Source: Actinomycetes bacterium (GTDB lineage: Bacteria; Actinomycetota; CALGFH01). From it: 64,000 bases of DNA. The translations under genes were made by a program, and so were the position numbers. The stretch covers positions 24,555-88,554 of the forward strand of contig DASYUT010000265.1 of NCBI GenBank assembly GCA_036000965.1, in the 5' to 3' direction. Under the pieces are notes generated by a model that searched no databases, was not told where the DNA came from, and saw only the letters and a list, made by a program, of their open reading frames with translations. Positions 5,968 through 60,228 of the stretch are shown piece by piece (positions within the stretch are counted from its first letter, which is position 1; every line of letters begins with the position of its first letter).

Positions 5968-6084
5968 CGGAACCACCTCCAGCAGCTGACACCCGGCCCG
6001 GCACTCGCTGATGTGCAACCCGGCGAGCCCGGCCAGGCCGGCGAAGGCCGCGGGATGGGGTCGCACCGAACCGACCCAGACCCT

Positions 6085-6217: not shown

Positions 6218-6364
6218 ACCACCGCCTGGGAGCTGGCTCCCGGTTCGGATGAGGCCGGGAGCCCTCGCGACCGCCCTCAGCGGGCCTCCTCAAGCGTGAC
6301 CAAAACGGTGTTTCATGGAGGCCGGTGGCGGCAGGGGCCGGCGTTCGGCGGAGGAGTTGCTGGC

Positions 6365-7351: not shown

Positions 7352-7409
7352 CCGCGGTGACAGCCTATCCTGGTGCTCCTCCGTCCAGCGACAGCCGTGG
7401 AGGGCGGGC

Positions 7410-10196: not shown

Positions 10197-11121
10197 GGGA
10201 GGGGAACACGAACGCGTCGGCTGCCTGGTACCAGCAGGGAAGCTCCTGGTCCGGGACCGTGCCGAGCAGGACGACGTCCCGGCCCAGCTCGAGTCCTGAC
10301 GCCCGAGCCCGGGTCAGGACGCGGTCGCGGTAGGCGGCGTAGTCCTGGAACGAGTGGCCGCCGACGACCGCGAGCACGGGCGAGGGCTGCAGGGTGCGCC
10401 GCAGCGCGGCCATTGCCTCGATGAGCTCGGCGGCGCCTTTGCGTGGCTCGATGCCGCCGACGGTGAGGAAGAGGAAGCGGCCCTCCGCGCCCACCCTGGC
10501 GCGGAACGGACCTGGGTCGAAGGCCGGCACCCGGGCGAAGCGCTCGGCGTCGACCCCGTTGCGCACGACCTCGGCCGCCACGCCGTACTCCTCCTCGAGC
10601 ACCCGCCGCCACCAGTGGCTCACCACGAGGACGTGGTCGGGCTCGAGGATGGCCCGGCGCTGGCACTCGACCAGCGCCTGCGTGGTGAAGTCGTCGACGT
10701 GGTGGACGGTCCGCACCACCAGCACCGGCGCGCCGAGGTCGCGGACGCGCGCGGCGGCCCGGGCCGAGATGCAGTCCTGGGCGTGGAGGATGCGGGAGGC
10801 GGGCTGCAGGGCGGCCAGCCCTTCGGCGAGGACGTCGACCGACCGGAACACCCGCTCCTCGAGGTCGGGTGCTGGCGGCGGCGTGGGGATGATGGTGTGC
10901 TGGACCGTCGTGGGCCGGAAGAAGCCGGCCTCCGGGTCGCCGAGCGCCACGACGCGCACGGGCATGCCGAGCCGGTGGAGCGCCTCGGCCAGCTGCAGCG
11001 TGTGCACCACACCGCCCCGGGGCCTGGTCGAGTACGTCACCAGGACGACGTCGGCGCTGACCGGGCGCTCCTCCTGCTCCCGACCGGGCCCCGGCCCGCC
11101 CGCCGACGTAACGGGGGCCAC
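9886..11121 (-). CDS. GT4 family glycosyltransferase (MshA/MSMEG_0565-like)
   Basis: The N-terminal domain (VVLVTYSTRPRGGVVHTLQLAEALHRLGMPVRVVAL) and the C-terminal EGWGLVVLEAMAARLPVIATD motif fit GT4. The stop TGA is at 9886. The start is ambiguous: GTG at 11121 or GTG at 11181 inside the tandem repeat. Confidence 0.7.
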   Translation of the reverse strand: MAPVTSAGGPGPGREQEERPVSADVVLVTYSTRPRGGVVHTLQLAEALHRLGMPVRVVALGDPEAGFFRPTTVQHTIIPTPPPAPDLEERVFRSVDVLAEGLAALQPASRILHAQDCISARAAARVRDLGAPVLVVRTVHHVDDFTTQALVECQRRAILEPDHVLVVSHWWRRVLEEEYGVAAEVVRNGVDAERFARVPAFDPGPFRARVGAEGRFLFLTVGGIEPRKGAAELIEAMAALRRTLQPSPVLAVVGGHSFQDYAAYRDRVLTRARASGLELGRDVVLLGTVPDQELPCWYQAADAFVFPSLKEGWGLVVLEAMAARLPVIATDIPVFREYLVGGRDALLVAPGDVAALADAMRTTATDSELRARLGAAGRRVATRFRWEDSACQHEAVYARLADRWAAWQFAC

Positions 11122-11127
11122 CCCCGC

Positions 11128-11274
11128 TGGCCTCACGGGAACCCGCCCGCCGGCGTCACGGGGCCCGCCCGCCGGCGTCACGGGACCCCGCCCGCCGGCG
11201 TCACGGGACCCCGCCCGCCGGCGTCACGGGGCCCCGCCCGCCGGCGTCACGGGGCCCCGCCCGCGGTCTCGGGG
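11128..11274. repeat. 22/23-bp tandem repeat x~6 (ccccgcccgccggcgtcacgggg)
   Basis: Units at 11142, 11164, 11186, 11209 and 11232, plus a partial copy at 11255. The unit is not a multiple of 3. The array spans the fdrA stop codon and the GT 5' region. Confidence 0.8.
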
Positions 11275-37262: not shown

Positions 37263-37367
37263 CGGGTGTGTGCTCCTTCCGAGGAACTATGCTCAGCGTA
37301 CGACGCGAGCGGGCTCGGCAGCCGCCAACCACAGCCCAGCGTCCGCCCCGGGGAGGGTCTGGTGAGC

Positions 37368-38174
37368 ATGAAGCTTTCGTGCCAGGAGCAGCTGCTGCCA
37401 GGCACCAGCCTGGAGGCCAAGTTCGACTTCGCGCGCCGGGCCGGGTTCGCCGGCATCGAGCTGCGCGCCCGTGGTGACGGCCAGTTCGCTGCGCGCCTGC
37501 CCGAGTTCCGCGCCGCCGCGCGCGCCGGCGTGGTCATGGCGACGGTGTGCCCGGAGACCGACCATTTCATCGGCGACTTCGACGCCGACAAGCGGCGCGA
37601 CGCGGTCGCGCAACTCCGCTCGCAGCTCAGCGTCATCGCCGAGCTCGGCGGCGAGGGGGTCCTCACCCCGGCCAGCTGGGGGATGTTCAGCCTGCGGCTG
37701 CCGCCGTTCGTACCACCCCGCGCGCAGCGCGAGGACCGCAAGGTGCTGCTGGACGCGCTGGCGGTGCTGGGCGAGCACGCCGCGCGCGAAGGCGTCTGGC
37801 TGGCCCTCGAACCGCTCAACCGCTTCGAGGACTACATGGTCAACCGGCTCGACCAGGCCGTCAGTCTCGCCGAGGAGGTCGAGCGGGAGCTCGGGCTGGA
37901 CTCGGTGCGGGTGTGCGCGGACCTGTTCCACATGAACATCGAGGAGGACGACCTTGCCAAGGCCATCGTCGACACCGGCCCGCGGCTCGCCCACGTCCAC
38001 GTCGACGACTCCAACCGGCTCCAACCCGGCACGGGCCACCTGGACTTCGCCGCGGTGCTCGATGCGCTGCGCACCGTCGGCTACGACGGCTGGCTGACCC
38101 TCGAATGCCGCCTCCGCGGCGACCCGGAGGAGGCACTGCCGGCCACCTCCCAGTTTCTGGCGCGCTACCTGTAG
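37368..38174 (+). CDS. Sugar phosphate isomerase/epimerase (xylose-isomerase-like TIM barrel)
   Basis: LALEPLNRFE...LFHMNIEE...HVHVDD are AP-endonuclease-2/TIM-barrel family motifs. GGGGAGGG upstream of the ATG at 37368. Confidence 0.75.
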   Translation: MKLSCQEQLLPGTSLEAKFDFARRAGFAGIELRARGDGQFAARLPEFRAAARAGVVMATVCPETDHFIGDFDADKRRDAVAQLRSQLSVIAELGGEGVLTPASWGMFSLRLPPFVPPRAQREDRKVLLDALAVLGEHAAREGVWLALEPLNRFEDYMVNRLDQAVSLAEEVERELGLDSVRVCADLFHMNIEEDDLAKAIVDTGPRLAHVHVDDSNRLQPGTGHLDFAAVLDALRTVGYDGWLTLECRLRGDPEEALPATSQFLARYL

Positions 38175-38415
38175 GGGCGGGCTTCACGGCTGGCCAGCGC
38201 CGCGCACGGAGGCCGCATGCCGGTTCAGCCGGTGTGCGGCCCGCCTCGAGCATCTCGTTCGCCCGCCTCGTCGCAGCGTTCCCCTTGCGGAGCCCCCGCT
38301 CGAGCTCCCCCTGCTCGTCGAGCTCCCCCTGCTCGGCCGGGTGGGCCGGTCGATTCGGCGGCCCTGGTCGGCTTCAGCCTGACGCCAGCCGACCTGGGTG
38401 GGTCGGGGAACCTGG

Positions 38416-39237
38416 TCAGCGGGCCACCTTGCCGCCCTGGACGCTGTCGGACCCGGCCAGCCGCTGCGCGAGGTAGACGGGGACGACGGACAACAGGATC
38501 GCGATCACGCCGACCGCGTTGACGATGGGTCCCTGGTTCGGCCGCGAGTAGTTGCGCAGGATCCAGATGGGCAGCGTGGGGTCGTCGCCCACCGTGAACG
38601 TGGTCACGATGACCTCGTCGAAGCTGAGAGCGAAGGCCAGCAGCGCGCCGGCCAGCAGCGCGGTCCGAACGGCTGGGAAGGTCACGAAGCGGAAGGTCTG
38701 CCAGGGGTCCGCACCAAGATCGAGCGACGCCTCCTCCAGGTTGCGGGCGGTGCGGCGCAGGCGGGCGACCACGTTGTTGAACACGATCACGATGCAGAAC
38801 GTCGCGTGGCCAACGATGATCGTGAAGGTGCCGAACGGCAGGCCGCCCAGCAGCGGCGCCTCCGAGAACGTCGCGTTGAGGGCCATGCCGGTCACGATCC
38901 CGGGCAGCGCGATGGGGATCACCACCAGGAACGAGACGGTGTCCCGGCCGAAGAACCGGTAGCGCTGCACCGCGAAGGCGGCCAGGGTGCCGAGGACCAG
39001 GGCGATGAGCGTCGCCCCCAGCCCGACCCTCACCGAGGTGAGCAGCGCGGCGCGGGCGCCCGCGTTGGTCAGCGCCCGGCCGAACCACTCCAGGGAGAGT
39101 CCGTCGATCGGCCAGCGCTGCACCCGCGAGCGGTTGAACGCGTACACGGTGAGCACGACGATCGGCGCGTACAGGAAGGCGAGCGTGAACGCGCTGCCGG
39201 CCCGCAGGGCGACCCTGGCCAGGCGCGACTGGATCAT
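38416..39237 (-). CDS. ABC transporter permease (PotC/PotI-like, spermidine/putrescine type)
   Basis: Six-TM permease with the EAA-like loop region. The ATG at 39237 overlaps the stop of the upstream permease (ATGA). Confidence 0.75.
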   Translation of the reverse strand: MIQSRLARVALRAGSAFTLAFLYAPIVVLTVYAFNRSRVQRWPIDGLSLEWFGRALTNAGARAALLTSVRVGLGATLIALVLGTLAAFAVQRYRFFGRDTVSFLVVIPIALPGIVTGMALNATFSEAPLLGGLPFGTFTIIVGHATFCIVIVFNNVVARLRRTARNLEEASLDLGADPWQTFRFVTFPAVRTALLAGALLAFALSFDEVIVTTFTVGDDPTLPIWILRNYSRPNQGPIVNAVGVIAILLSVVPVYLAQRLAGSDSVQGGKVAR

Positions 39238-40176: not shown

Positions 40177-41379
40177 TCAGCCCTTGATCTCCGTCCATGC
40201 CCGGACCCACTCGGAGTAGTCCTTGCACACGCTGCCGCGGTCGTCGCCACACTTCTTCACCGGCGTGGTCCAGTACGCCACGCGGCTGAAGTAGGCCTCG
40301 TCGTCGGCGTGAAACGTCTTGCAGTGGTTCTTGTCGGCCGTCTCCTGGCACGACAACCGGTTGGCCGGCGCCTCGCCGAAGAACTCGGCAACCTGTGCGT
40401 TGGCCTTGGGGGACACGATCCAGTCCATCCACAGGTACATGCAGTTGGGGTGCTTGGCCTTGGACGAGATCATCCAGGTGTCGGACCAGCCCGTGGCGCC
40501 CTCCTTGGGCAGGGTGACCCCGACCGGCACCTTCTCGGCCTCCAGCAGGTTGGCGATCACCTGCCAGGTCGTGCCGACCACCGAGTTGCGGTTGGTGAAC
40601 GCGGCGACCTCCTTGGTGTAGTCCGACCAGTACTCGCCGATGACGGACCGCTGCCCCTTGAGCAGGTCGACGGAGGCTTGGAGCTGCCGGTCGTCCAGCT
40701 CGTACGGGTTGGTGATGCCGAGCTCGGGCTTGGTCGCCTTCAGGTACAGCGCGGCGTCGGCGATGTAGATCGGACTGTCGTAGGCCGTGACCTTGCCCTT
40801 GTAGGGGGAGTTCGGGTCGAACACCACGCCCCAGCTGTCCGGCGCCTGCTTGACCACGTCCGAGCGCCACATGAGCAGATTCGCGCCGCGGCCGTGGGGG
40901 ATGCCGTAGTTGACGCCGTCCACGGTGTTGTGCGGCTTGTCCTTGAGCCCGTCGAACACCTCCTTGTAGCTGGGGACAAGGTCGACGTTGACAGGGCTCA
41001 CCTCACCCGTGGCGATCAGCCGCAGGGTCGCGTCGCCGGAGGCGGAGACGCCGTCGTACTTGCCGCTCTTCATCAGCGTGACCATCTCGTCGGAGGTGTT
41101 GCCAACGGTGACGTTGACGTTGCAGCCGGTCTTCTTCTCGAAGGGCGTCACCCAGTCCACCTTCGGGTCGGTCGAGCCGTCCTCCACGTAGCCGGCCCAC
41201 GCGACCAGGTCGACCCGGCCCTCACCCTGGCCGAGCTGGGCGAGGGCCGTGGGCTTGGACGCCCCGGTGTCCCCTCCACCCCCGCCCCCGCTGCCGCCGC
41301 CATCGCCCCCGCAGGCGGCAAGCAGCAGGAGCAGTCCGATGACGAGGATGGCTGTCCGTCGACGTACCACGGTCCCCAC
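40177..41379 (-). CDS. ABC transporter substrate-binding lipoprotein (PotD/PotF-like polyamine-binding)
   Basis: Signal peptide with lipobox LLLAACGG. Periplasmic-binding-protein fold similar to spermidine/putrescine SBPs. Confidence 0.8.
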   Translation of the reverse strand: MGTVVRRRTAILVIGLLLLLAACGGDGGGSGGGGGGDTGASKPTALAQLGQGEGRVDLVAWAGYVEDGSTDPKVDWVTPFEKKTGCNVNVTVGNTSDEMVTLMKSGKYDGVSASGDATLRLIATGEVSPVNVDLVPSYKEVFDGLKDKPHNTVDGVNYGIPHGRGANLLMWRSDVVKQAPDSWGVVFDPNSPYKGKVTAYDSPIYIADAALYLKATKPELGITNPYELDDRQLQASVDLLKGQRSVIGEYWSDYTKEVAAFTNRNSVVGTTWQVIANLLEAEKVPVGVTLPKEGATGWSDTWMISSKAKHPNCMYLWMDWIVSPKANAQVAEFFGEAPANRLSCQETADKNHCKTFHADDEAYFSRVAYWTTPVKKCGDDRGSVCKDYSEWVRAWTEIKG

Positions 41380-41395: not shown

Positions 41396-42637
41396 TCACT
41401 CCGGCAGCAGCAGGTTGTGCTGCCGGTCCCACACCAGCCGGACCGGCCGCCCCTTGGCGGCCAGCACCTCCATCGACGAGGTGGCGAGGTTCTGCTGGGT
41501 CACGACCAGCTCGCCGCCCACGTCCAGGCGCACCACGAAGCGCGTCTGCGAGCCGAGGTAGGCGACGTCGGCGACGACTCCGGTGGCGGTGCTCTCGCCG
41601 GCGCCTGGCGTCCCGTCCAGCTCGGTGATCCGGATCTTCTCGGGCCGGACGGTGAAGGTGCCGTCCCGGCCGGTGACCGCCCGCGCGGCCTCGCCCCCGA
41701 GGAGGTTCGACGTGCCCACAAAGCCGGCCACGAACGCGCTGCCCGGTCGCTCGTACAGCTCGGCCGGCGTGGCGATCTGCTCGATCCGGCCTTGGCTGAA
41801 GACGGCGATGCGGTCGCTCATCGTGAGAGCCTCGTCCTGGTCGTGGGTGACGAACACGAACGTGATCCCCACCTCGTGCTGGATCGCCTTCAGCTCGCGC
41901 TGCATCTCCTCGCGCAGCTTGCGGTCCAGGGCGCCGAGGGGCTCGTCGAGCAGCAGCACACTCGGCCGGTTGACCAGCGCCCTGGCCAGCGCCACGCGCT
42001 GGCGCTGCCCGCCGGACAGCTGGGAAGGCCGCCGGCCGCCGAAGCCCTCCAGCCGGACCAGACGCAGTGCGTCGGCCACGCGCGCGGTGCGCTCCGCCTT
42101 GGCCACCTTCTTCACCAGCAGCCCGTAGGCCACGTTGCCGGCGACGCTCATGTGCGGGAAGAGGGCGTAGTCCTGGAACACGGTATTGACGTCGCGCTCG
42201 TAGGGCGGGCGGTCGGTGACGTCCTCACCGTGGAGCAGGACCCGGCCCGCAGTCGGCGTCTCGAAGCCGGCGATCAGCCGCAGGCAGGTGGTCTTGCCGG
42301 AGCCGGAGGGGCCGAGCAGCGAGAAGAACTCGCCAGCGCGGACCTCCAGATCGACCCCGGCCACGGCCTCGACGTCGCCGAACCGCTTGACCACCCCGGC
42401 GAGGCGGACGGCCGCCTGGCCAGGTGACGCGGCTGGGGCCCGCCCGTCGACGCCGGGCTGGTCCGCGCCCGGCCGCCTGGCCCGCCCGAGGGTGTCCAGC
42501 GCCCAGGCGCCCCCACCCTGGCCGGATGCAGGCTGGCCGGATCCAGGCTGGCCGGATCCAGGCTGGCCGGATCCAAGCTGGCCGGATCCAAGCTGGCCGG
42601 ATCCAAGTTGGGAGGGAGCCTCGTCAGGACCTGTCAT
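41396..42637 (-). CDS. ABC transporter ATP-binding protein (PotA/PotG-like) with N-terminal (L/PGSGQ)6 repeat extension
   Basis: Walker A GPSGSGKTT, signature LSGGQRQRVALARAL, Walker B VLLLDEPLGALD and a C-terminal TOBE-like domain. ATG at 42637 with GAGGAGGGG immediately upstream. Confidence 0.8.
   Translation of the reverse strand: MTGPDEAPSQLGSGQLGSGQLGSGQPGSGQPGSGQPASGQGGGAWALDTLGRARRPGADQPGVDGRAPAASPGQAAVRLAGVVKRFGDVEAVAGVDLEVRAGEFFSLLGPSGSGKTTCLRLIAGFETPTAGRVLLHGEDVTDRPPYERDVNTVFQDYALFPHMSVAGNVAYGLLVKKVAKAERTARVADALRLVRLEGFGGRRPSQLSGGQRQRVALARALVNRPSVLLLDEPLGALDRKLREEMQRELKAIQHEVGITFVFVTHDQDEALTMSDRIAVFSQGRIEQIATPAELYERPGSAFVAGFVGTSNLLGGEAARAVTGRDGTFTVRPEKIRITELDGTPGAGESTATGVVADVAYLGSQTRFVVRLDVGGELVVTQQNLATSSMEVLAAKGRPVRLVWDRQHNLLLPE
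42518..42607 (-). repeat. 15-bp in-frame tandem repeat x6 (ctggccggatccagg) encoding (L/P)GSGQ repeats
   Basis: Six consecutive 15-bp units. The translation is LGSGQLGSGQLGSGQPGSGQPGSGQPASGQ. Confidence 0.75.
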
Positions 42638-42732
42638 CCCCCTCCTCTTCCGCAGGCCAGACAGCGGCCTTCCACCGAGGCCGAGCCGCTGAGGCCAAAG
42701 CATGACGGGAGAGCAAGCACCCAGCAAGAGCA

Positions 42733-45210
42733 TCACTCCGCCCAGGTTCGAGCGAGCGACTGCAGGGCCTCGACAGCCGGGCCGACATCGATCTGCTGCT
42801 CACCCTCCTGCCCGGCCGGGACGAGGGGGAGGAGCATCTGATGGGCGGGGCGGAGCGCCGTTCCGAGGTCGGCGGGGGTCAGGCCGCGGCGTGCCACCGC
42901 CCAGGATGCCACCAACGCCTCGATCCCGACGACCACCCATGCACTCTGGAGCAGCCGCTCCGCCTCGGCCAGCGCATGGGGCGCGAGACCGGCGACATCC
43001 TCCACCCCTTCCGCGAGCTGCCCGTGGTAGTGGGGGGTGACCGGCATCGCCGCGATCGACGAGGTTGCGACGTGGGCGGCGACGATGTAGCTGAGGTTGA
43101 GGAACTGGGCTCCGCCCGAGGCGCCCGCCTCGGCGGCCAGTCCCATGGGAAGGCCGCTGAAGCTCGACCAGTGCAGCTTGTGGGTTCGTTCCGCGCTCGC
43201 CCGAAGCGCCTTGGCCAGCGCCAGCCTGAGCGCGTCCATGGTGATGGCGAGCAGCGTCGTCTCCGGGTTGCCGTGAGACACCAGCTCGCCGGTTGCCAAG
43301 TCGACCAGGGGGTTGTCGACCGTCGCGTTGAGCTCCCGCTCCCAGGTCTGCCAGGTCCAGGCGAGGGTCTCCCGGCCCGCGCCGCTCACCTGGGGGACGC
43401 AGCGGAAGCTGAGCGGGTCCTGGAGGAACCGCGGTTCGCCGGGTCGCCACAGGCGACTGCCCGCAAGCAGCCGGCGGAGCCGTTCCCCCGCCCACCGGTG
43501 GCCGGGCTGGGGGTGGGCCTGGTCGACGACGGCGCTCCATGCCTGCGGGTTGCCGCGGAAGCCCTCCAGCGCCAGCGCCGCGGCGATGTCCATGGCGATG
43601 AGGAGCCTGCGCGCCTCTGCCAGGACGAGCGCGCCGCGACCGAGGGTGAGGCTGTTGTTGTTGACGAGGGCCAGCGCCTCCTTCGGTGCGGGGGAAGCGG
43701 GCGCGGCCGGCGGCTGCTCCGGCCCGCGCCCGTCGCCCGCGAGCAGCGTGCCGCCACCGACCAGGGGCAGCGCCAGCTGCGCGAGCGCCACGAGGTCCGA
43801 GGCGCCCACCGAGCTGCCGAGGTCGACTGCTGGCAAGCGGTCGTCGCGCAGGTTGGCCAGCAACCATTCGACCAGCGCGGGCCGGACCCCGGAGCGCCCG
43901 CTGGCAAAGAGGTTCACCTGGATCGCCATGCAGGCGCGCACGAGCTCCGCCGGCGCCACGGGCCCGGGCGAGCGCGTGGCGTGTGCGTAGAGCAGCTGCC
44001 GGTTGAACTCCTGCAGCCGCTCCGTCTCGATCATGTAGTCCTTCTGGGAGCCCACCCCTGTCGTGGTGCCGTACGCCCGCACGCGCTGGTCCACGAGCTG
44101 CTCGACCACGGCTCGCCCCCGGGCGATCCGCTGCCACGCCGCTTGCGGGACCTCGACTGTGGCCGTGCCGCTGGCGATGCGTTCCACGTCGTCGATCCGA
44201 AGGCTCTCGCCGTCGAGCAGCACGGGAGCCGTGCTGGGACCGGCCTCGTCCAGGACGCCCTGCCGCGTCGGCATGGGGACCCTCCGCTTGGCCGCGTGCA
44301 TGAGGTGGAGCAGTAGCCGGATCACCGTGTCGGACGTCGTCTGGCCGACGTCCAGCGAGGGGAGGAGGCCGACGACGCAGACGCCGACGACCCTGCCGCG
44401 CGCCGAGAGGCCGCGCAGCAGGGCGGCTGCCTCGTGGAAGAGCAGGCCGCCCTGGCGTGGGCGGCTCGTCCCTGGCGCGATCGACGGGTCGAGGCCGTCC
44501 ACGTCCAGGGTGACGAGGAACCGCCCGCCTTCCGGAAGCCGGCCCAGCAGCCAGTCCACGCCGTGCATCCGCACGTCGACGGCGTCGACCAGCAGCGTGC
44601 CGGCGTCCCGGGCGTCCCGGGCGTCCCGGGCGTCCCGATGCGCCTCGATCTGGACGACATGGGGTGGCCCCGAGCCCTCGTAGGCTTGGAGCACGCACTG
44701 TGGGATGGAGCCGTCGCCGCCGAGCACGATCGGCACGACGTCGCGTTCGACGAGCGCATGGACCACCCGGGTCGTGCCTTCCCGCTGGAGGGCCGGGTCA
44801 CGCGGGTCGGCAGGGACGTCGCCGCAGTCCACGAGCGACACGGGGCCGCCGTCGAGGACGTCGCCGGCGTCGTGCGAGAGCAACCCCGCGAACCGCTGCG
44901 AGCGTCGTCGGAGCACCGCTGGGGCGTCGCAGGCGTCGGACCCGGCCCCGTGAGCGTCCGACCCGGCCACGTGTGCGTCCGACCCGGCCCCGTGAGCGTC
45001 CGATGCAGCCCCGTGTGCGTCAGACCTGGCCACGTGTGCATCCGATGCAGCCCCGTGTGCGTCGGACCTGGTCCCGTGCGCGTCGGACGGTGCTCCGCAG
45101 GGCGCTCCGACCACCGCGAAGCCGGTGGCCACGGTAGACGGGTCGTGGTGCGCCGGAGCATCGAGGAAGGTGCCCGCCTCCCGGCCAGGTGGCAGCAGGG
45201 TGATGGCCAT
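42733..45210 (-). CDS. Fusion ORF: arginase/formiminoglutamase-family ureohydrolase domain (N-terminal) + histidine/aromatic ammonia-lyase-family domain (C-terminal) with degenerate MIO motif
   Basis: N-terminal domain VPIVLGGDGSI...LVTLDVDGLDP (ureohydrolase). C-terminal domain with a HAL-like N-terminus (LLDGESLRIDDV...AYGTTTGVGSQKD), but SVGAS-D replaces the Ala-Ser-Gly MIO triad. No stop separates the domains. ATG at 45210 with GGAGGAAGG upstream. Confidence 0.55.
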   Translation of the reverse strand: MAITLLPPGREAGTFLDAPAHHDPSTVATGFAVVGAPCGAPSDAHGTRSDAHGAASDAHVARSDAHGAASDAHGAGSDAHVAGSDAHGAGSDACDAPAVLRRRSQRFAGLLSHDAGDVLDGGPVSLVDCGDVPADPRDPALQREGTTRVVHALVERDVVPIVLGGDGSIPQCVLQAYEGSGPPHVVQIEAHRDARDARDARDAGTLLVDAVDVRMHGVDWLLGRLPEGGRFLVTLDVDGLDPSIAPGTSRPRQGGLLFHEAAALLRGLSARGRVVGVCVVGLLPSLDVGQTTSDTVIRLLLHLMHAAKRRVPMPTRQGVLDEAGPSTAPVLLDGESLRIDDVERIASGTATVEVPQAAWQRIARGRAVVEQLVDQRVRAYGTTTGVGSQKDYMIETERLQEFNRQLLYAHATRSPGPVAPAELVRACMAIQVNLFASGRSGVRPALVEWLLANLRDDRLPAVDLGSSVGASDLVALAQLALPLVGGGTLLAGDGRGPEQPPAAPASPAPKEALALVNNNSLTLGRGALVLAEARRLLIAMDIAAALALEGFRGNPQAWSAVVDQAHPQPGHRWAGERLRRLLAGSRLWRPGEPRFLQDPLSFRCVPQVSGAGRETLAWTWQTWERELNATVDNPLVDLATGELVSHGNPETTLLAITMDALRLALAKALRASAERTHKLHWSSFSGLPMGLAAEAGASGGAQFLNLSYIVAAHVATSSIAAMPVTPHYHGQLAEGVEDVAGLAPHALAEAERLLQSAWVVVGIEALVASWAVARRGLTPADLGTALRPAHQMLLPLVPAGQEGEQQIDVGPAVEALQSLARTWAE
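44932..45085 (-). repeat. 21-bp in-frame tandem repeat x7 encoding (SDAHGAx)n inside the arginase-like N-terminal region
   Basis: gcgtccgacccggccccgtga and its variants are repeated consecutively. Confidence 0.75.
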
Positions 45211-45388
45211 CCTTCCTCCGTGCTGTCGAGGGTCAGGGAACGGGGACGTCGCCACCGTGCCAGATATTCTTGCGCCTCGGGGCCTCCGCCGAGCCGTGCC
45301 GGACCCCTCGAGGCTGCGCCGAGCGTGCCGGACGCCTCCGGGCCTCCCCGAGGCGTGCCCGACCACGCCGATGCCGGCGGACCGCCGG

Positions 45389-45886
45389 TCAGGCCGCCGG
45401 GTCGAGCGGCCGCAGCTCCTCGGCGTAGCTGACCGAGACGCGGCGCATGACGCCGTCGGCGCCGAACGCGTACTGCCCGAGCCGCCAGAGCGGTGGCGAG
45501 TAGGCGTGGATGGTCACGCCGCCCTCGCGCTCGCCGCTCATCCGGTGGATGTGGTCGGGCCCGAAGCAGAACGACTGCCCCTCGGGCACCACGGTGACCA
45601 CGTGCTCGCTGCCGAGCCGTGGGTTGCACTCGATGACGGCGCCTCGCACGACGCGGACCGCCCCCGAGGAGATGTCGTGGTCGTGCCACCCGGTATCACT
45701 GGTCCAGGTCCAGCAGAGCAGCCACACGTCCACGTGCTCGTCACGGTGCAGGGAGACGTAGTGGCGCTTCTCGTCGGAGAACGCGACGTGCTCGCTCCAA
45801 AGCTCAGGGCGAGCCGCCAGGTCGTCGACGAGCGCTCGGAGCTCGTGCTTGTCGAGGACTCGGGCGGGCAGTGTCTCCCAGGTCAT
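45389..45886 (-). CDS. Cysteine dioxygenase type I-like cupin (thiol dioxygenase family)
   Basis: 165-aa cupin with a His-rich metal site (HVDVWLLCWTWTSDTGWHDHDISSG...HIHRM). AAGGAG lies 8 nt upstream of the ATG at 45886. Confidence 0.6.
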   Translation of the reverse strand: MTWETLPARVLDKHELRALVDDLAARPELWSEHVAFSDEKRHYVSLHRDEHVDVWLLCWTWTSDTGWHDHDISSGAVRVVRGAVIECNPRLGSEHVVTVVPEGQSFCFGPDHIHRMSGEREGGVTIHAYSPPLWRLGQYAFGADGVMRRVSVSYAEELRPLDPAA

Positions 45887-46782
45887 CCCATGGCTCCTTG
45901 GAGGTCGAGAAACCGGGTCGGATTCGTGGTGCGGATGGCGTGCGCGGCCGCCGCGCCAAGGCCGGGGTCGCTGGGGAGCGCGTACGGCCGGTCCGAGCCG
46001 AGCACGACGGCGTCGACGCCGAGGACGCGGACCATGGCATCGACCGCACGCGTGCCATAGGAGGAGCTCTCGACGAAGACCTCCGGGTCCACCGTGCCCC
46101 GGTCGCCGCCGCGCGCCCGCAGGCGCTCGCCATGCAGGGGAGCGAGGCCGGCGAGCATCGCGAAGCAGACCCGCAGCCGCGGATGGCGTGGCCGACCGAA
46201 GGCCCGGAAGGCGAACCAGGCGGCATGCATCTGCTGCACGTACGGCACCAGCGCGGGCCACCAGGCTGGGGCTCGGCGCGCTGCCAGCGGGGCGGCGCCC
46301 GGGTGGACGAAGAGCGGGCGGCCGTGGGTCTCGAGCAGGTCGAGCAGCGAGGCGCACCGCTCGTACCCCTGCGCGTCGAGCACCGCGGTCGCGGGGAGCT
46401 GCAGCCCGACGCAGCCGCGGCCCAGTTCCTTGCCGGCCTGGGCGGGGTCGATCTCGCTCAGGCACACCGAAGCCCAGGACAGGAACGGCGTGGGCAGCGC
46501 GAGCACGCCGTCGTGGTAGGTGTCCAGCAGCGGCAGCGCCTCCTCTGGCGGAAGCCATTCGATGCCGAGCGGGCTGGACAGGGATACGAGGACGAGGTCG
46601 AGCCCGTCCTCGCTCGCCTGGGCCTGGCGGCAGGCGACGTCATGGTCGGCAGGATCGACGGCGAAGTCTGGCTGGCCGTCCAGGACGAGGGTCCAGCCGA
46701 CCATCCTCGGCGCGTGCCGACGGCTCCGCAACGCGTCGACGAGCGCGTCGGGCCAGAGGTGCTGATGGACGTCGACGCGCAT
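45883..46782 (-). CDS. Amidohydrolase family 2 protein
   Basis: N-terminal VDVHQHLWP, typical of amidohydrolase_2 (ACMSD-like). GAGGCGG upstream of the ATG at 46782. The stop overlaps the downstream start (ATGA). Confidence 0.75.
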   Translation of the reverse strand: MRVDVHQHLWPDALVDALRSRRHAPRMVGWTLVLDGQPDFAVDPADHDVACRQAQASEDGLDLVLVSLSSPLGIEWLPPEEALPLLDTYHDGVLALPTPFLSWASVCLSEIDPAQAGKELGRGCVGLQLPATAVLDAQGYERCASLLDLLETHGRPLFVHPGAAPLAARRAPAWWPALVPYVQQMHAAWFAFRAFGRPRHPRLRVCFAMLAGLAPLHGERLRARGGDRGTVDPEVFVESSSYGTRAVDAMVRVLGVDAVVLGSDRPYALPSDPGLGAAAAHAIRTTNPTRFLDLQGAMG

Positions 46783-46810
46783 GCGACCGCCTCGAGGTTG
46801 AGCGATGCAG

Positions 46811-46856
46811 TGAGGTTAAGCGATTCAGTGAATCGATTAAGTGAAGCGCTTAACCA
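46811..46856. promoter_or_regulatory. Cluster of LacI-type operator-like palindromes (AAGCGCTT, AATCGATT) in a divergent promoter
   Basis: gttaagcgattcagtgaatcgattaagtgaagcgcttaac lies in a locally AT-richer stretch between the amidohydrolase/CDO operon and the lacI-family gene. Confidence 0.45.
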
Positions 46857-47014: not shown

Positions 47015-47053
47015 TTCCGGGTCGCGACCGGTCGTCTCAGGTAGCCTGTGTCC

Positions 47054-48082
47054 ATGTCGCGGCCACGCAAGCGAGTCACGATCCAGCAGGTCGCCGAGGC
47101 CGTCGGGTTGTCGGCCGCGGCTGTCTCCTACGCCCTGCGCGGAAGCCACGTCTCCAAGGAGACCGAGGAGCGTGTCCGGCGGGTGGCCACCGAGCTGGGC
47201 TACGAGGCACACCCGATCGCCCGCGCGCTGGCGAGCGGCCGCACGAGCATGGTGGGGGTGATCTCGGGCTCGCTGGAGGACCTGTGGCAGCAGCAGGTGA
47301 GCGTCGGCATCGGGCGCGAACTGCTGGCCCGCGACCTGTACGCGCTCATCGTGGACGCGGGGGGCGACCCGGAGCGCGAGCAGGCCCTGGCGCTGCAACT
47401 GCGCGACCAGAGCGTCGACGGTCTCATCCTGTCCCCGCTGGACCCCTCCGCGCCGCTCTGGGCGGACCTCGCCGAGACCCTGCCCGTGGTGGCCATCGGG
47501 GACTCCCTGCAGGGCGCGCGACCGACCGGCGAGGTGCTGTTCGACAACCGGGCGGGCGTGACGCTGGCGCTGGAGCACCTGCACCAGCTCGGGCACCGGC
47601 GCATCGCGGTGCTGACCTCGACCCAGCCCAGCACCCCGGACCGCCCGGCAGACACCTACGTGCTGGCCGAGGCGCGGCGGCTCGGTCTCGACGTCGCCGT
47701 GCGGACCGCGCCCCACTCCCTCGCCGAGGCCACCAAGGTGGCCAGGAAGGTGCTCTCCGCAAACAGCCGGCCCACCGCGCTGTTCTGCTTCTCCGACTCG
47801 ATCGCCTACGGCGGGTATGCGGCAGCCCGGGACCTCTCCCTGCGGATCCCCGCCGACCTGTCGATCACCGGGTACGACAACCACCCGGTGTCGTGCCTGC
47901 TGTCCCCGCCCCTGACGACCTTCGACTGGGACCGCGAGGGGATCATCCGCACGGCGGTCCAGCTCGTGGTCGCCGCCATCAACGGCAGGCCGCGCCGGCG
48001 CCGGGTCGTCAAGACACCCGTGCTGCACCTGCGAGGGTCCACCGGCGCGCCCCCTCGACCCGGACCACGCCGCCGCTCCTGA
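47054..48082 (+). CDS. LacI family transcriptional regulator
   Basis: N-terminal HTH VTIQQVAEAVGLSAAAVSYALRG and a periplasmic-binding-protein-like effector domain. Alternative GTG start at 47048. Confidence 0.8.
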   Translation: MSRPRKRVTIQQVAEAVGLSAAAVSYALRGSHVSKETEERVRRVATELGYEAHPIARALASGRTSMVGVISGSLEDLWQQQVSVGIGRELLARDLYALIVDAGGDPEREQALALQLRDQSVDGLILSPLDPSAPLWADLAETLPVVAIGDSLQGARPTGEVLFDNRAGVTLALEHLHQLGHRRIAVLTSTQPSTPDRPADTYVLAEARRLGLDVAVRTAPHSLAEATKVARKVLSANSRPTALFCFSDSIAYGGYAAARDLSLRIPADLSITGYDNHPVSCLLSPPLTTFDWDREGIIRTAVQLVVAAINGRPRRRRVVKTPVLHLRGSTGAPPRPGPRRRS

Positions 48083-48300
48083 CCAGCTGTCGTTCCTGAC
48101 CGGCCGCCGCTCCCGGCGGCCGCTCCTGACCAGCCGCCGCACCCGACCAGCCGCCGCACCCGACCAGCCGCCGCACCGGACTGGCCGCCGCACCCGACCA
48201 GCCGCCGCACCCGACCAGCCGCCGCACCGGACTGGCCGCCGCACCGGACTGGCCGTCGCACCCGACCAGCCGTCGCACCCGACCCGCCGCGGTTCCCGAC
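48077..48300. repeat. 17-bp tandem repeat array x~12 (gaccagccgccgcaccc) filling the convergent intergenic region
   Basis: Consecutive 17-bp units run from the lacI stop codon to just before the ADH stop. The unit is not a multiple of 3. Confidence 0.85.
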
Positions 48301-48316
48301 CGGGGACGAGACCAGG

Positions 48317-49474
48317 TCACGACGCGGGCACCGCGCCGGCGAGCACCGGATCGAGGATCGCGACCGTGCGCGCCGCCCCGTCGCCCCGGCGGAGGCGGTC
48401 GAACGCCGCCTCGAGGCCGTCGAGGTCGGTGAGGTCGGAGACCCCCGTGGCGAGGTCGAGCAGCCCGTCGGCCGCCAGGCGCGCGAGCTCGGCGACGTCC
48501 GCGGCCGGATCCCCGGACCCGTAGTAGGAGCCCTTGAGGCCCTTCTCGGCGAGCAGCTCGATCCCCGGGACCGCCACCTCCACCCCCTTGGGCACGATCC
48601 CCACCACCACCGCGGTGGCGCCAGGTCGGAGCAGGTCCCAGGCCAGCCGGACCGTTTCGGGCTGCCCGACCACCTCGAACGCGTGGTCGACGCCGACGCT
48701 CGTGAGCCCGAGCGTCGCCGCGACCGGGTCGTCGCGCACCGAGTCCAGCACGTGCGTCGCCCCGGCCGCCAGCGCACGCTCGAGCTTGGCGGGGTCGCGG
48801 TCGACGGCGACAATGGGGTCGGCCCGGGCCAGGCGCGCGCCCGCGACGACCTGCAGGCCGACGCCCCCGCAGCCCACCACCGCCACGCTCTCGCCGGGCT
48901 CCACGCGCGCGGCGTGACGCACCGCGCCGACGCCGGTCACCACACCGCAGCCGATCACGGCCGCCTGCCACAGCGGCAGGACCGGCGGGATCGGGACGGC
49001 CGAACCAGCCGGGACCACGCTGCGCTCGGCGAAGCACGAGACGAAGTTGAAGTGCTTGAGTGGCCGGCCGTCAAGGAGCGACAGGCGCGAGGTCCCGTCG
49101 AGCAGGGTCCCCGCCCAGGACCGGCCGGCCGCCGTCCGGCACAAGTTGCGCCGTCCCGCCAGGCACTCAGGGCAGGTGCCGCAGCTCGGCACGAAGCAGA
49201 ACGCCACCGGGTCACCGGGCGCCACATGACCGACTCCCGCGCCCACCTCCTCGACCACGCCCGAGCCCTCGTGGCCGAGCACGGTCGGCCAGCGCCCATC
49301 CCCGAGGTGCCCCTCGGCGAGGTGCAGGTCGGAGTGGCAGACCCCGGCCGCCGCGACGCGCACGAGCACCTCGCCGGCGCGCGGCGGTTCCAGCCGGACC
49401 TCCTCGACCACGAGGGGCCTCCGGGCCTCGTGCAGCACCGCTGCCCGCACCGTGCGGGTCTCGTGCGCCACCAC
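48317..49474 (-). CDS. Zinc-dependent alcohol dehydrogenase (class III / formaldehyde-dehydrogenase-like)
   Basis: GVCHSDLH, GHEGSG and the structural-zinc Cys cluster CGTCPEC, with Rossmann GCGGVG. The GTG start has GAGG upstream. Confidence 0.8.
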   Translation of the reverse strand: MVAHETRTVRAAVLHEARRPLVVEEVRLEPPRAGEVLVRVAAAGVCHSDLHLAEGHLGDGRWPTVLGHEGSGVVEEVGAGVGHVAPGDPVAFCFVPSCGTCPECLAGRRNLCRTAAGRSWAGTLLDGTSRLSLLDGRPLKHFNFVSCFAERSVVPAGSAVPIPPVLPLWQAAVIGCGVVTGVGAVRHAARVEPGESVAVVGCGGVGLQVVAGARLARADPIVAVDRDPAKLERALAAGATHVLDSVRDDPVAATLGLTSVGVDHAFEVVGQPETVRLAWDLLRPGATAVVVGIVPKGVEVAVPGIELLAEKGLKGSYYGSGDPAADVAELARLAADGLLDLATGVSDLTDLDGLEAAFDRLRRGDGAARTVAILDPVLAGAVPAS

Positions 49475-49480
49475 CGGACC

Positions 49481-50587
49481 TCAGCCGACCCGGTAGGGCT
49501 CGAGGGCCTCGAGGTCGGGGGTGACGCCGAGGCCGGCACCGGGCGGGGGCGCGATCGTGCCGTCGGCGGCGACCTCGACCGGCTCGGGCAGCAGCCAGTC
49601 GCGGCGCTCCGCGGACCACAGCGGTGGGTCGAGCGGCACCTCGACGTACGGGCAGGTCGAGACCGCGAGCGCAAGGTGGAGGTTGGCCACCAGCCCGAGA
49701 CCGTTGCTCCAGGTGTGCGGCGAGAACATCCTGCCGCACAGGCTCGCCAGGGCGGCGATCCGCCGGCACCCGGCGATCCCGCCGGCGAGCACGGCGTCGG
49801 GCTGGACGACGTCGACCCCGCCGCGCAGCACGAGGTCGCGCGCCTCGTGGAGGTGCCGGACCATCTCGCCGGCCGCGAGCCGCATCGACGTGCGGTGTCG
49901 CAGCGCCCTGTAGCCGTCGACGTCGTCGGTCCGCAGCGGCTCCTCGAGCCAGTAGACGCCCAGCCGCTCGAGCTGGGCCGCGCACTGCGCGGCCGTCGGC
50001 ACGTCCCACCGGGGCGTGACGTCGCCGGCCATGCGCCATCCCTGGTTGGCGTCGACCATCAGCTCCACCTGGGAGCCGAGCGCGTCGCGCACCGCCTCCA
50101 CCACCTCGAGGTCGCGCCGCCAGTCGTGGTGGAAGCGCAGCTTCACCGCGCGGATGCCTCGCTGCTGCAGCTCCTTGACCCGACGCACCCGCTCCTCGGG
50201 CTCCACCAGCTCGCCGGTGGACGCATAGGCCACCAGCCGCTCCGAGCGCCCCCCGAGCAGCTGCCACAGCGGCAGGCCGAGCGCCCGCCCGACCAGGTCC
50301 CAGACGGCCACCTCAACGGTCCACGGGCGACCGCCGTGGAAGTCCACGGTCTCGCACAGCTCGAGGACGCGCTCGGTCCGCCGCGGGTCCACGCCGACCA
50401 GCAGCGCCTCGAGCTGGCGGGCGTCGGGCAGGTGGCCGCCGCTCGCGTAGCCGGCGAGCCCGTCGTCGGCGCGCACCACCACGATGGTGGCGTCGAGCGC
50501 CGCGCGGGGCGCCGGGTCCCAGGCGGCCCGGAACGCCGGCTCGAGCCGCGCGCGGTAGCGGCGGGTCTCGACGGCCGCGATGCGCAC
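49481..50587 (-). CDS. Enolase-superfamily enzyme (mandelate racemase / muconate lactonizing enzyme family)
   Basis: The MR/MLE N-terminal and C-terminal barrel domains carry conserved metal ligands (KLRFHHDW...VDANQGW...EEP...). GTG at 50587. Confidence 0.75.
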   Translation of the reverse strand: MRIAAVETRRYRARLEPAFRAAWDPAPRAALDATIVVVRADDGLAGYASGGHLPDARQLEALLVGVDPRRTERVLELCETVDFHGGRPWTVEVAVWDLVGRALGLPLWQLLGGRSERLVAYASTGELVEPEERVRRVKELQQRGIRAVKLRFHHDWRRDLEVVEAVRDALGSQVELMVDANQGWRMAGDVTPRWDVPTAAQCAAQLERLGVYWLEEPLRTDDVDGYRALRHRTSMRLAAGEMVRHLHEARDLVLRGGVDVVQPDAVLAGGIAGCRRIAALASLCGRMFSPHTWSNGLGLVANLHLALAVSTCPYVEVPLDPPLWSAERRDWLLPEPVEVAADGTIAPPPGAGLGVTPDLEALEPYRVG

Positions 50588-50605
50588 CCTCAGTCACCCC
50601 CACCC

Positions 50606-51127
50606 TCAGTCGCCCCCGTAGAAGGGCGTGCTCGCGGCCTCGCGGCGCGCCGCCAGCGCGGTGACCTCCTCTGCAGAGGGAGGCCGCAGCGCGTCGGCGA
50701 GCGCGCGGAAGGTGGCGCTGCGGCTGGCCTTGCGGACCGCGGTCTCGTCGTGGGCGGCGGGGTCGATCCAGACCGCGACGAGCAGCAGCAGCTCGGCCGC
50801 GTCACCAGGGTCGACCATCCCCTCGGCGACCGCGTCGAGCACGCCCTGGGCGATTCCGAGCTGGGCCGCGCCCCAGACGAGCCGGGACTGGGCCTGGTCC
50901 TCGAGCGGCGCCTTGTTCACGACCACGGTGGTGGGGCGCACCATCGCCCCACGCTCGAGGCAGGCGATGAACGGCAGGTGCCCGGGGCGCGGCGAAGCGA
51001 GCGCGGCCGCCACCGCGGCGCCCGTGGCCGAGCCGCGACGGGCCGCGACGACGTTGACGTGGCTGCCGTTGGGGTCCTCGCCGGCCCAGCCCTCGCCGAT
51101 GCGCCCGTCCACGGGGTCGGTGCCCAT
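50606..51127 (-). CDS. Formaldehyde-activating enzyme (Fae) family protein
   Basis: Collinear similarity to Fae: GEGWAGEDPNGSHVNVV...RGS, LDAVAEG and a C-terminal TPFY. The ATG is preceded by GGAGG, created by a 19-bp duplication of the upstream gene's end. Confidence 0.6.
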   Translation of the reverse strand: MGTDPVDGRIGEGWAGEDPNGSHVNVVAARRGSATGAAVAAALASPRPGHLPFIACLERGAMVRPTTVVVNKAPLEDQAQSRLVWGAAQLGIAQGVLDAVAEGMVDPGDAAELLLLVAVWIDPAAHDETAVRKASRSATFRALADALRPPSAEEVTALAARREAASTPFYGGD

Positions 51128-51146
51128 CACGCCTCCTTCACCGGGG

Positions 51147-52319
51147 TCATGCCTCCTTCACCGGAGTGCCTGCGCCGCCGGCCGGCCGCCGCCGCCGGCG
51201 TCGCTGCCGCCGCCGGGGCTCGAGCAGGACCCGGCGCGCCCCGCCCGAGCGTAGCAGCGCGAACGCTGCCTCGACCTCCTCGAGCGGCAAGCGGTGTGAG
51301 ATCAGGCGGTCGAGCGGGAGGCGCCCCGAGCGGTACAGCCCGAGGATCGTGGGGAAGTCCCGCGCCGGCTGCGTCGAGCCGTACGCGCTGCCGAGCACCC
51401 GGCGTTCCATCCGGGGGACCGAGAGCGCGGGCAGGCGCAGCTCGGCGTCGGCGCGCGGGATCCCCACCAGGACCGCGGCGCCGCGCGCGCGCGTCGACAG
51501 GAACGCCGCCTCGGCCACCTCGGGCCGGCCGCTGGCCTCGACCGCGTAGTCCACCCCGCCGCCGCTCGCCGCGCGCACCGCCTCGGCGGTCGCCTCAGGG
51601 TCGCCGGCCCAGCGCACGGCGTCGGTCGCGCCCAGCGCCAGGGCCGCCTCGAGCTTCTCGGGCGAGACGTCGACGGCCAGCACCGGTGCGGCGCCGGCCG
51701 CGACCGCGCCGAGGATGGCGGACAGCCCCACTCCGCCGCAGCCGAGCACGGCGACGCGCTCGCCCGGGCGCACGCCCGCGGTGTTCCAGACCGCCCCGAC
51801 GCCGGTCGCGACCGCGCACCCGACGAGCGCCGCCACCTCCAGCGGTACGTCCGCGTCGACCGGCACGCACGAGCGCTCGGCCACTACCGCGCGCTCGGCG
51901 AAAGTCGACAGCAGCGAGTAGTGGTAGACGGGCTCGCCCTGGCGCGACAGGCGCGGCGTGCCGTCGAGCAGGCCGCCGTGGCCCATGGCCCCCCAGGCCG
52001 TGCGGCACAGGTGGGCGAGGCCCCGCAGGCACTCCTCGCAGCGCCCGCACCACGGGATCCAGGAGAGCGCCACCGGCTGGCCGGGACGGAGCGCCACGCC
52101 CGGCCCCGCCTGCTCCACCACCCCGGCGCCCTCATGCCCCAGCACGACAGGGCAGCGTGTGGGCGCGGTGCCGTCGATGGCGTTGAGGTCGGAGTGGCAC
52201 ACGCCGCTGGCGTGGAGCCGCACGAGCACCTCGCCCGGCCCGGGCGGGGCGAGCTCGACCTCGGTCACTTCGAGCCTGGCGCCGGTCTCGGGCAGCACGA
52301 CGGCGAGGACCGTCGTCAC
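51147..52319 (-). CDS. Zinc-dependent alcohol dehydrogenase (second copy)
   Basis: GVCHSDLN, GHEGAG, CGRCEEC and GCGGVG. The GTG at 52319 overlaps the ATPase stop (GTGA). Confidence 0.75.
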   Translation of the reverse strand: MTTVLAVVLPETGARLEVTEVELAPPGPGEVLVRLHASGVCHSDLNAIDGTAPTRCPVVLGHEGAGVVEQAGPGVALRPGQPVALSWIPWCGRCEECLRGLAHLCRTAWGAMGHGGLLDGTPRLSRQGEPVYHYSLLSTFAERAVVAERSCVPVDADVPLEVAALVGCAVATGVGAVWNTAGVRPGERVAVLGCGGVGLSAILGAVAAGAAPVLAVDVSPEKLEAALALGATDAVRWAGDPEATAEAVRAASGGGVDYAVEASGRPEVAEAAFLSTRARGAAVLVGIPRADAELRLPALSVPRMERRVLGSAYGSTQPARDFPTILGLYRSGRLPLDRLISHRLPLEEVEAAFALLRSGGARRVLLEPRRRQRRRRRRPAGGAGTPVKEA

Positions 52320-60079: not shown

Positions 60080-60112
60080 CAGCGGCCTCCTTGGTGACGC
60101 CGTGCGTCGGGG

Positions 60113-60228
60113 TGGTGGCCCGTCGGGATGGTGGCCCGTCGGGATGGTGGCCCGACGGGGTGGTGGCCCGACGGGGTGGTGGCCCGACGGGGTGGTGGCC
60201 CGTCGGGGTGGTGGCCCGACGGAGCCTA
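60113..60228. repeat. 16-bp tandem repeat x7 (ggtggcccgNcgggNt) upstream of the deaminase gene
   Basis: Seven consecutive units lie between the amidohydrolase stop and the deaminase start. Confidence 0.8.

Follow-up and report, generated by a model that had tools for sequence, protein, structure and literature searches.

What is made by a gene in which a ureohydrolase-like and a histidine ammonia-lyase-like (HAL-like) domain share a single reading frame? The question was raised by one open reading frame (ORF) in a 64,000-nucleotide stretch of DNA from an Actinomycetes bacterium (GTDB lineage CALGFH01; assembly GCA_036000965.1, contig DASYUT010000265.1, positions 24,555 to 88,554), referred to below as the window, with a G+C content of 73.4%. 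A sequence-only reading had described the ORF as uninterrupted, with an arginase-family and a HAL-family domain, and this was borne out: the product has 825 amino acids (aa) and matches both PF00491 and PF00221. The gene is best explained, with a probability of roughly 0.6, as encoding a cytoplasmic trimethylammonia-lyase of the ergothionase or histidine-betaine-lyase kind, independent of the 4-methylideneimidazole-5-one (MIO) cofactor, in an operon for ergothioneine breakdown and with a vestigial HutG-type domain at its N-terminus. The protein is laid out as follows.

42733-45210, minus strand: fused ORF (arginase-like remnant, linker and MIO-less lyase), ATG at 45210, TGA at 42733, 825 aa, uninterrupted
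44287-45210, minus strand: arginase-fold remnant, aa 1-308, PF00491, from a HutG-type ureohydrolase
44224-44286, minus strand: inter-domain linker, aa 309-329, predicted to be disordered by AlphaFold2 (AF2); its DEAGPS part marks where the deletion was joined in L001, a relative with the lyase only
42736-44223, minus strand: HAL-fold lyase domain, aa 330-825, with Y380, H410, N517, Q597, R603, N633 and E737 retained
43792-43818, minus strand: MIO site GSSVGAS-DL, aa 465-473, with the Gly of Ala-Ser-Gly absent

The lyase half was found to have the aromatic amino acid lyase fold over its whole catalytic domain (Lyase_aromatic PF00221, aa 337-776, E 7.4e-102, profile positions 1-448 of 466), with template-modelling (TM) scores of 0.8-0.88 to HAL, TAM and PAL structures. 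Its best sequence match in the PDB was the Treponema denticola ergothionase (6s7j, E 4.5e-41), which was also the best fold match (TM 0.87-0.88). The degenerate MIO motif noted earlier was confirmed by alignment, in which no intact Ala-Ser-Gly was seen: the region reads A470-S471-D472, one residue shorter than the SVGASGDL of HAL, so that the triad of MIO-dependent HutH is lacking, and the score against the HutH equivalog model TIGR01225 was 243.6 bits, below the 539 required. The missing Gly is a trait of a whole clade of about 50 loci, mostly from Alphaproteobacteria with some from Acidimicrobiales, whose lyases are 41-56% identical to that of the window; the SVGAS-D motif is shared among them, the site itself varying (AS, AA, MS, QA, VS and others), whereas true HALs from the same scan carry SVGASGD and QDAYSLRC. 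The QDPLSFRC of the window lyase is identical to the ergothionase sequence. The important residues listed in the literature are a Tyr that acts as base, Gln, Arg and Asn that hold the carboxylate, His and Glu that hold the imidazole and Lys384, which binds the thiolate (bioRxiv 10.1101/2025.08.13.670108); with the exception of the lysine, these residues are all present in the window lyase, where Y380, Q597, R603, N633, H410 and E737 were invariant or nearly so in the alignment of relatives. With the HAL fold kept, the MIO triad gone from the entire clade and a MIO-free enzyme as nearest solved structure, the assignment to the MIO-free trimethylammonia-lyases is firm, as the sequence-only reading had suspected. 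Its other suggestion, a bare binding domain, is unlikely because substrate-binding and catalytic residues are both retained. A separate MIO-less HAL-like type was also encountered in loci L078-L090 (Labrys, Azospirillum, Nitrospirillum and others), with GSVGY---LSHMAH, three residues shorter than HAL, and QDPLSLRA.

The likely substrate is indicated by one further position of the active site.

43087-43116, minus strand: GGAQFLNLSY, aligned to the Lys384 region of ergothionase; free of Lys and Arg, with N705 almost invariant across the clade

No basic residue was found between aa 696 and 712 of the window lyase, where the thiolate-binding Lys of ergothionase would be expected (register uncertain by +/-2 positions). 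Lyases acting on sulfur-free histidine betaines have Asn or Gln instead of Lys384 (bioRxiv 10.1101/2025.08.13.670108; 10.64898/2026.04.22.720169); according to the same preprints, replacement of Lys384 abolished ergothionase activity and Asn/Gln variants did not turn over ergothioneine. Three members of the clade, L018, L033 and L040 from Acetobacteraceae metagenome-assembled genomes (MAGs), carry Lys exactly at the N705 position, reading GGVQFLKLGH, and could represent an ergothionase type within the clade; only housekeeping genes neighbour these lyases. The Lys/Asn difference at position 705 would fit a specificity switch, if N705 and Lys384 are taken, hypothetically, to be equivalent. Additionally, urocanase adjoins the lyase in 12 of the 50 clade loci, and in several of them (e.g., L037) the lyase occupies the HutH position in hutI-hutC-hutU-lyase operons, so urocanate is the most likely product. 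The substrate is probably hercynine (histidine betaine), which we hold with about the same confidence as the assignment of the gene as a whole.

The setting of the gene is consistent with such a substrate. The sequence-only reading had placed a cysteine-dioxygenase-like cupin, an amidohydrolase-2, a LacI regulator and operator-like palindromes downstream of the fusion; all were found, although the three genes are upstream in the direction of transcription.

45389-45886, minus strand: ergothioneine dioxygenase (ETDO) ortholog, 165 aa, phmmer E 4e-74 to PDB 8QFL-8QFR
45883-46782, minus strand: amidohydrolase-2-like protein, 299 aa, with weak ACMSD similarity and aligned HxH, His and Asp motifs; candidate ergothioneine-sulfinate desulfinase
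46795-46855, no strand: LacI-type operator half-palindromes (TTAAGCGATTCA/TGAATCGATTAA and similar), immediately before the first gene of the operon
47048-48082, plus strand: divergent LacI-family regulator, in the same arrangement in L001, L004, L094 and L095

The cupin is indeed cysteine-dioxygenase-like, but its identity as an ETDO ortholog, which gives the locus its meaning, had gone unrecognised. Its predicted model matched the entry titled 'Ergothioneine dioxygenase from Thermocatellispora tengchongensis' (Foldseek, 70% identity, root-mean-square deviation 1.3 A), the name being taken from PDB entry titles reached through that model. The three-His site and the Tyr and His of the crystal variants were all found, with WHDHD, IHR and HAYSPPLW invariant. 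The amidohydrolase-like gene shares a 4-nt ATGA overlap with ETDO, and its product is 74% and 68% identical to that of the gene preceding ETDO in Carbonactinospora and Streptomyces, respectively, where the module of LacI, amidohydrolase-like protein and ETDO is conserved. No NCBIfam model matched the ETDO-like or the amidohydrolase-like protein. The partner of ETDO, in the work of Nalivaiko, Vasseur and Seebeck (2024), is reportedly a metal-dependent desulfinase yielding N-alpha-trimethylhistidine and SO2, and the amidohydrolase-like protein would be this desulfinase. Two or three operators resembling TGAAGCGGTTCA lie in tandem at the same position in L001, L004 and the window.

Lyases without MIO were found linked to the ETDO module in three different clades. 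In 16 loci of Gaiellaceae, Thermoleophilia and Actinomycetes MAGs, genes for a lyase, the amidohydrolase-like protein and ETDO stand in a row. In seven of these an MttB-family methyltransferase follows, a hint that a quaternary amine or trimethylamine is demethylated. Similarly, in Carbonactinospora thermoautotrophica (L094; 152-1600 and 3905-6507) the module lies about 3.5 kb from an ergothionase-like MIO-less lyase with SIGTGD. The lyase of the cluster L062-L088 (Gaiellaceae, Thermoleophilia and Actinomycetes MAGs; ~6001-10500 in each) is 35-39% identical to that of the window. In Streptomyces (L095; 1088-6570) the module has an OpuAC betaine-binding protein nearby; L094 and L095 come from cultured actinomycetes.

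Taken together, a LacI-controlled operon for O2-dependent breakdown of ergothioneine can be proposed, of which the lyase would be the last gene product. Ergothioneine would be converted to its sulfinic acid by ETDO, and the amidohydrolase-like partner would release SO2 or sulfite to leave histidine betaine, a step that could also proceed slowly without an enzyme; a preprint describes ETDO and the slow unaided desulfination of its sulfinate. In the lyase, Tyr380 would then take the beta-proton while Gln597, Arg603 and Asn633 held the carboxylate and His410 and Glu737 the imidazole, so that trimethylamine would be expelled and histidine betaine converted to urocanate and trimethylamine. MIO would not be needed because trimethylamine is a good enough leaving group. 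The N-terminal 310 residues would be the vestige of a HutG-type formiminoglutamase-like gene fused in frame, with no catalysis left; since a frameshift would destroy the lyase as well, the frame would be kept open while the domain gathered substitutions, in-frame deletions and growing tandem repeats.

The fusion itself was examined for its start, continuity and spread. Every homolog begins MAITLLPPGR and a strong ribosome-binding site (RBS), GGAGGAAGG at 45211-45219, directly precedes the ATG, so that ATG 45210 was taken as the start; the longest possible reading begins at GTG 45366. The Arginase PF00491 match (E 3.8e-30) was split in two stretches, and the domain junction was located at about 44224-44286 and not within 43900-44100, where the sequence-only reading had wanted a hidden stop to be sought. 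Its proposal to look for the fusion in other genomes proved fruitful: the same continuous frame, with no stop or frameshift, was present on five other contigs from four further assemblies (sources: Logan SRR11742962; NCBI GCA_009772815.1 and GCA_009772795.1; ENA ERZ27253163; JGI 3300018078). Identity was 99% for P0001/L008 (Logan), 78% for P0002/L004-L006 (NCBI, ENA) and 76% for P0003/L007 (JGI metagenome). The fusion is genuine and no artefact of one assembly, and because it recurs uninterrupted elsewhere the sequence evidence, as far as it reaches, excludes a hidden frameshift. It is rare: both halves were matched by the P0002 cluster only, among the best 150 matches from 1.84 billion cluster representatives, and it was absent in more than 556 relatives across 185,579 species genomes, a scan in which the window organism had no close relative. 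A separate lyase with an internal start was rejected, as no Met is found near the beginning of the lyase domain when the proteins of L004 and L007 are aligned (GTG/TTG starts, and any RBS there, lay outside this check) and L001 re-uses the RBS and ATG of the fusion. Other long forms of related lyases were also seen (P0009, P0285, P0303, P0307, P0315 and P0312); one, with a total of 861 aa, carries the C-terminal portion of a molybdopterin oxidoreductase in front, several are extended by about 175 aa at the N-terminus and one reaches 1121 aa. These may be further read-through fusions or real architectures.

The arginase-like half was compared with intact proteins. Its closest intact relatives (310-337 aa) are 45-56% identical to the remnant, and all three of those examined (P0019, P0025, P0029) lie directly after urocanase, with IclR and a divergent HutI-like gene; the HutG-like label given to it earlier is therefore reasonable. 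The PF00491 profile is matched, though in two stretches, and the motifs of the metal site are eroded.

44707-44721, minus strand: GGDGS, aa 164-168; GGDDS in seven of seven aligned intact relatives, GGDHS in canonical ureohydrolases
44602-44649, minus strand: IEAHRD (degenerate DAHxD), then (DAR)n, encoded by a 9-bp x4 repeat where the 40 aa are missing

The complete set of binuclear-metal ligands (GGD[HD]S, DAHxD, DxD) is not present in the window copy, which has GGDGS and EAHRD. The Asp of GGDDS was lost in all three fused lineages (GGDGS in the window, GGDRS in L004 and GGDGS in L007), DAH was altered differently in each (EAH, GAH and DAQ) and DVD became GVD in one. Right after DAH, 40, 45 and 55 residues were lost in the three lineages, including the SSPMRRA loop. 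In the window, the remnant aligns to agmatinase 1WOG at residues 33-153 and 194-293, and the missing 40 residues (1WOG 154-193) correspond to the segment SSPMRRA...HVGLRG of close relatives, the substrate loop after DAHxD, so the ureohydrolase fold is incomplete. The ratio of nonsynonymous to synonymous substitution rates (dN/dS, Nei-Gojobori, based on three lineages in a GC-rich genome with strong codon bias) was 0.75-1.09 for the N-terminal part, compared with 0.25-0.40 in the lyase and 0.16-0.27 across five neighbouring genes. At least six indels, all in frame, separate the fused lineages in the N-terminal part, as against one in the larger lyase part.

A natural deletion was found in the lyase-only P0004/L001, which is 90% identical and occurs on eight contigs. 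It keeps the RBS and ATG of the fusion (ACGGAGGAAGGATG) and continues at once with the linker codons of the window, GACGAGGCCGGTCCCAGC. Because a linker insertion is common to L001 and the window and absent in L004 and L007, L001 is nested among the fused lineages and has deleted residues 2 to about 322 precisely. With a metal-site residue and a segment of 40-55 aa from the substrate loop gone, near-neutral evolution and this clean excision in a sister lineage, a working bifunctional HutG-HutH fusion was not upheld. The N-terminal domain is presumably inactive, and we consider it quite probable that it is a vestige in which the lyase downstream safeguards the reading frame but not the sequence.

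The coding repeat lies within this half.

44941-45087, minus strand: seven imperfect 21-bp coding units, SDAHGTR SDAHGAA SDAHVAR SDAHGAA SDAHGAG SDAHVAG SDAHGAG
44920-44940, minus strand: SDACDAP, a degenerate eighth or progenitor unit, adjoining the 21-bp array

The seven units of the (SDAHGAx)7 repeat reported earlier were thus recovered, but not the perfection claimed for them: the units encode SDAH(G/V)xx with pairwise identities of 67-100% (mean 80%), and Tandem Repeats Finder gave matches of 77% for a period of 21 and of 85% for a period of 42. P0002 and P0003 lack the array, and in the otherwise identical P0001/L008 it is one unit shorter. AF2 gave a predicted local distance difference test score (pLDDT) below 50 for aa 42-89, the repeat array and the linker both being predicted to be disordered. 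About 20 tandem arrays, G+C-rich, occur in the 64-kb window, and several around the operon are absent from relatives, so that the 21-bp repeat can be seen as one case of a lineage-wide tendency, tolerated in an unconstrained region. Examples of the arrays are:

45275-45364: 30 bp x3, between the fusion and ETDO; lacking in L004 and L007, partly matched in L001
46898-47009: 36 bp x3.1, intergenic; the corresponding region of L004 is far shorter (~97 bp)
48058-48301: 17 bp x14.5
60108-60222: 16 bp x7.2
11095-11264: 23 bp x7.4
42518-42605: 15-bp x5.9 coding repeat with 97% matches, encoding (GSGQL/P)n in the N-terminal extension of a PotA-like ATPase

The arrays look like lineage-specific expansion.

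Several points weigh against the trimethylammonia-lyase with a vestigial domain proposed here. The identity to ergothionase is only ~25-29%, the function of the lyase clade is read from its sequences, and the equivalent of Lys384 is fixed no better than +/-2 positions. The desulfinase assignment draws on what is reported of the ETDO/desulfinase pair and on synteny, and the L001 operon lacks the amidohydrolase-like gene, so that the lyase might take the sulfinate directly. The 64-kb window contains neither urocanase nor any other hut gene, and tblastn of it gave no matches for urocanase, HutI, HutC, ProW or MttB. The dN/dS estimates carry the limits given with them, and the arginase core is still modelled confidently by AF2 (pLDDT ~78-96), though the alignment of intact homologs drives the model.

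Some of these points feed a different reading of the lyase, as an ergothionase-type enzyme that acts on ergothioneine, or on the sulfinic or sulfonic acid made from it by ETDO, to give a 2-substituted urocanate. Ergothionase is the closest solved relative of the window lyase and, by the title of its deposited structure and in the work of Maurer and co-workers (2019), is said to accept ergothioneine sulfonic acid as well; the L001 operon consists of ETDO and lyase without the amidohydrolase-like gene, and the three members with Lys at the N705 position mean that the clade can host either type. The window lyase, however, has Asn705 and no basic residue around it, whereas ergothionase loses its activity when Lys384 is replaced, and the clade relatives of the window lyase are linked to ordinary urocanase. 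The operon without a desulfinase can be explained by the slow spontaneous desulfination of the sulfinate, and we consider an ergothionase-type activity unlikely. Less likely still is a functional arginase-like domain, either a divergent formiminoglutamase in a compact histidine-betaine pathway or a pseudoenzyme that binds a ligand, organises an oligomer or modulates the lyase. Such a domain would account for the frame kept in three lineages, for a C-terminal half (DVDGLDPSIAPGT...HEAAALLRGL) still near that of intact relatives and for the confidently modelled core, and it would be metabolically sensible to unite the types of enzyme that open and close the histidine pathway. Residues invariant in the intact relatives nevertheless differ among the three fused lineages, unequal deletions remove the substrate loop, dN/dS is ~1 and a repeat has grown inside the fold; the downstream lyase explains the conserved frame, and L001 excised the domain cleanly while its lyase stayed under purifying selection. 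A joint version, in which the HutG remnant is a pseudoenzyme whose expandable His/Asp-rich (SDAHGxx)n tract binds metal or the pathway end-product and tunes the lyase, with copy number producing strain-level variation in ergothioneine turnover, and in which, separately, the lyase clade acts on ergothioneine sulfinate, would be a distant outsider; if true, the sulfinate would be a class of substrate so far undescribed for the fold. Finally, the whole gene might be a pseudogene in decay, or the fusion might conceal two genes through an error of assembly or a frameshift. At 73% GC long ORFs often arise spuriously, unstable tandem repeats abound at the locus and the dN/dS of the lyase is at the high end of the range of its neighbours. 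Set against this are the same continuous frame in independent assemblies of different samples, the retention of every catalytic and binding residue of the lyase with dN/dS clearly below 1, and the strong RBS at the fusion start, with no Met near the lyase start in aligned L004 and L007, within the scope of the start check; decay or artefact is very improbable indeed.

Further genes flank the operon.

41396-42736, minus strand: PotA-like ABC ATPase, following the lyase, its start GTGATG overlapping the lyase stop
40177-41379, minus strand: YdcS/PotD-like solute-binding protein of the same transporter

No Pfam match was obtained for the two presumed permease ORFs at 37296-38039 and 38228-39088. 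On its other side, the operon is adjoined by genes for formaldehyde-activating enzyme (Fae), class III and mycothiol-type Zn alcohol dehydrogenases and an enolase-superfamily dehydratase-like protein (48317-51157 and ~51150-52400). The Fae/dehydrogenase cluster is conserved in L001 (5354-8134) and could deal with formaldehyde from methylamine oxidation.

If the assignment as a MIO-free lyase for histidine betaine is true, the operon links the oxidative ergothioneine pathway, whose dioxygenase and desulfinase end at hercynine, to central histidine catabolism. Soil Actinomycetota would then be able to take ergothioneine all the way to urocanate, trimethylamine and sulfite, and histidine-betaine lyases would be found outside the periplasmic respiration of Shewanella as well. 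That MIO-less lyases of three clades go together with the ETDO module is a directly testable prediction. The N-terminal part would be a clear natural case of a dead domain trapped in frame before a needed enzyme, in which sequence drifts, repeats grow and deletions come only in multiples of three, until one lineage excises it precisely. Annotation pipelines would label the protein as a bifunctional arginase/histidine ammonia-lyase, and both labels would be wrong.

Set beside known systems, the lyase joins the MIO-free trimethylammonia-lyases as a new and uncharacterised member, in an unusual context and with a vestigial fused domain. With the T. denticola ergothionase (6S7J) it shares the HAL fold without MIO, QDPLSFRC, the catalytic Tyr, the Gln, Arg, Asn, His and Glu ligands and a MIO loop one residue shorter than in HAL; it differs in its low overall identity, in having no counterpart of Lys384, in standing in an oxidative ETDO operon rather than a thiourocanate pathway and in carrying an extra N-terminal remnant of 320 aa. 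Swoo_3913 of Shewanella woodyi is a histidine betaine trimethylammonia-lyase that makes urocanate and trimethylamine (bioRxiv 10.1101/2025.08.13.670108; 10.64898/2026.04.22.720169), the reaction proposed for the window lyase, and both it and SO_3299 of S. oneidensis, compared here by description, are MIO-less with a neutral Asn or Gln for Lys384. The Shewanella enzymes are periplasmic and coupled to flavocytochrome urocanate reductases in anaerobic respiration, whereas the window lyase has no signal peptide and belongs to an O2-dependent catabolic operon in an Actinomycetota lineage. HutH (TIGR01225; Pseudomonas putida 1B8F) has a similar fold (TM 0.87-0.88) and its Tyr53, His83, Asn195, Gln277, Arg283, Asn313 and Glu414 occupy the same positions, but the window lyase lacks Ala-Ser-Gly, has Leu for Tyr280 and scores less than half the family cut-off. 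The N-terminal part shares 45-56% identity and the order of motifs with the HutG-type proteins found beside urocanase (P0019, P0025, P0029), from which the window copy differs by the loss of 40 residues including SSPMRRA, by Gly for the Asp of GGDDS and by a 49-aa repeat insertion. The ETDO module of Actinobacteria (8QFL-8QFR) is matched by a 70% identical ETDO and by an order of LacI, amidohydrolase-like protein and ETDO syntenic with Carbonactinospora and Streptomyces; to it the window and the Gaiellales add a MIO-less lyase, which would extend the pathway from hercynine to urocanate.

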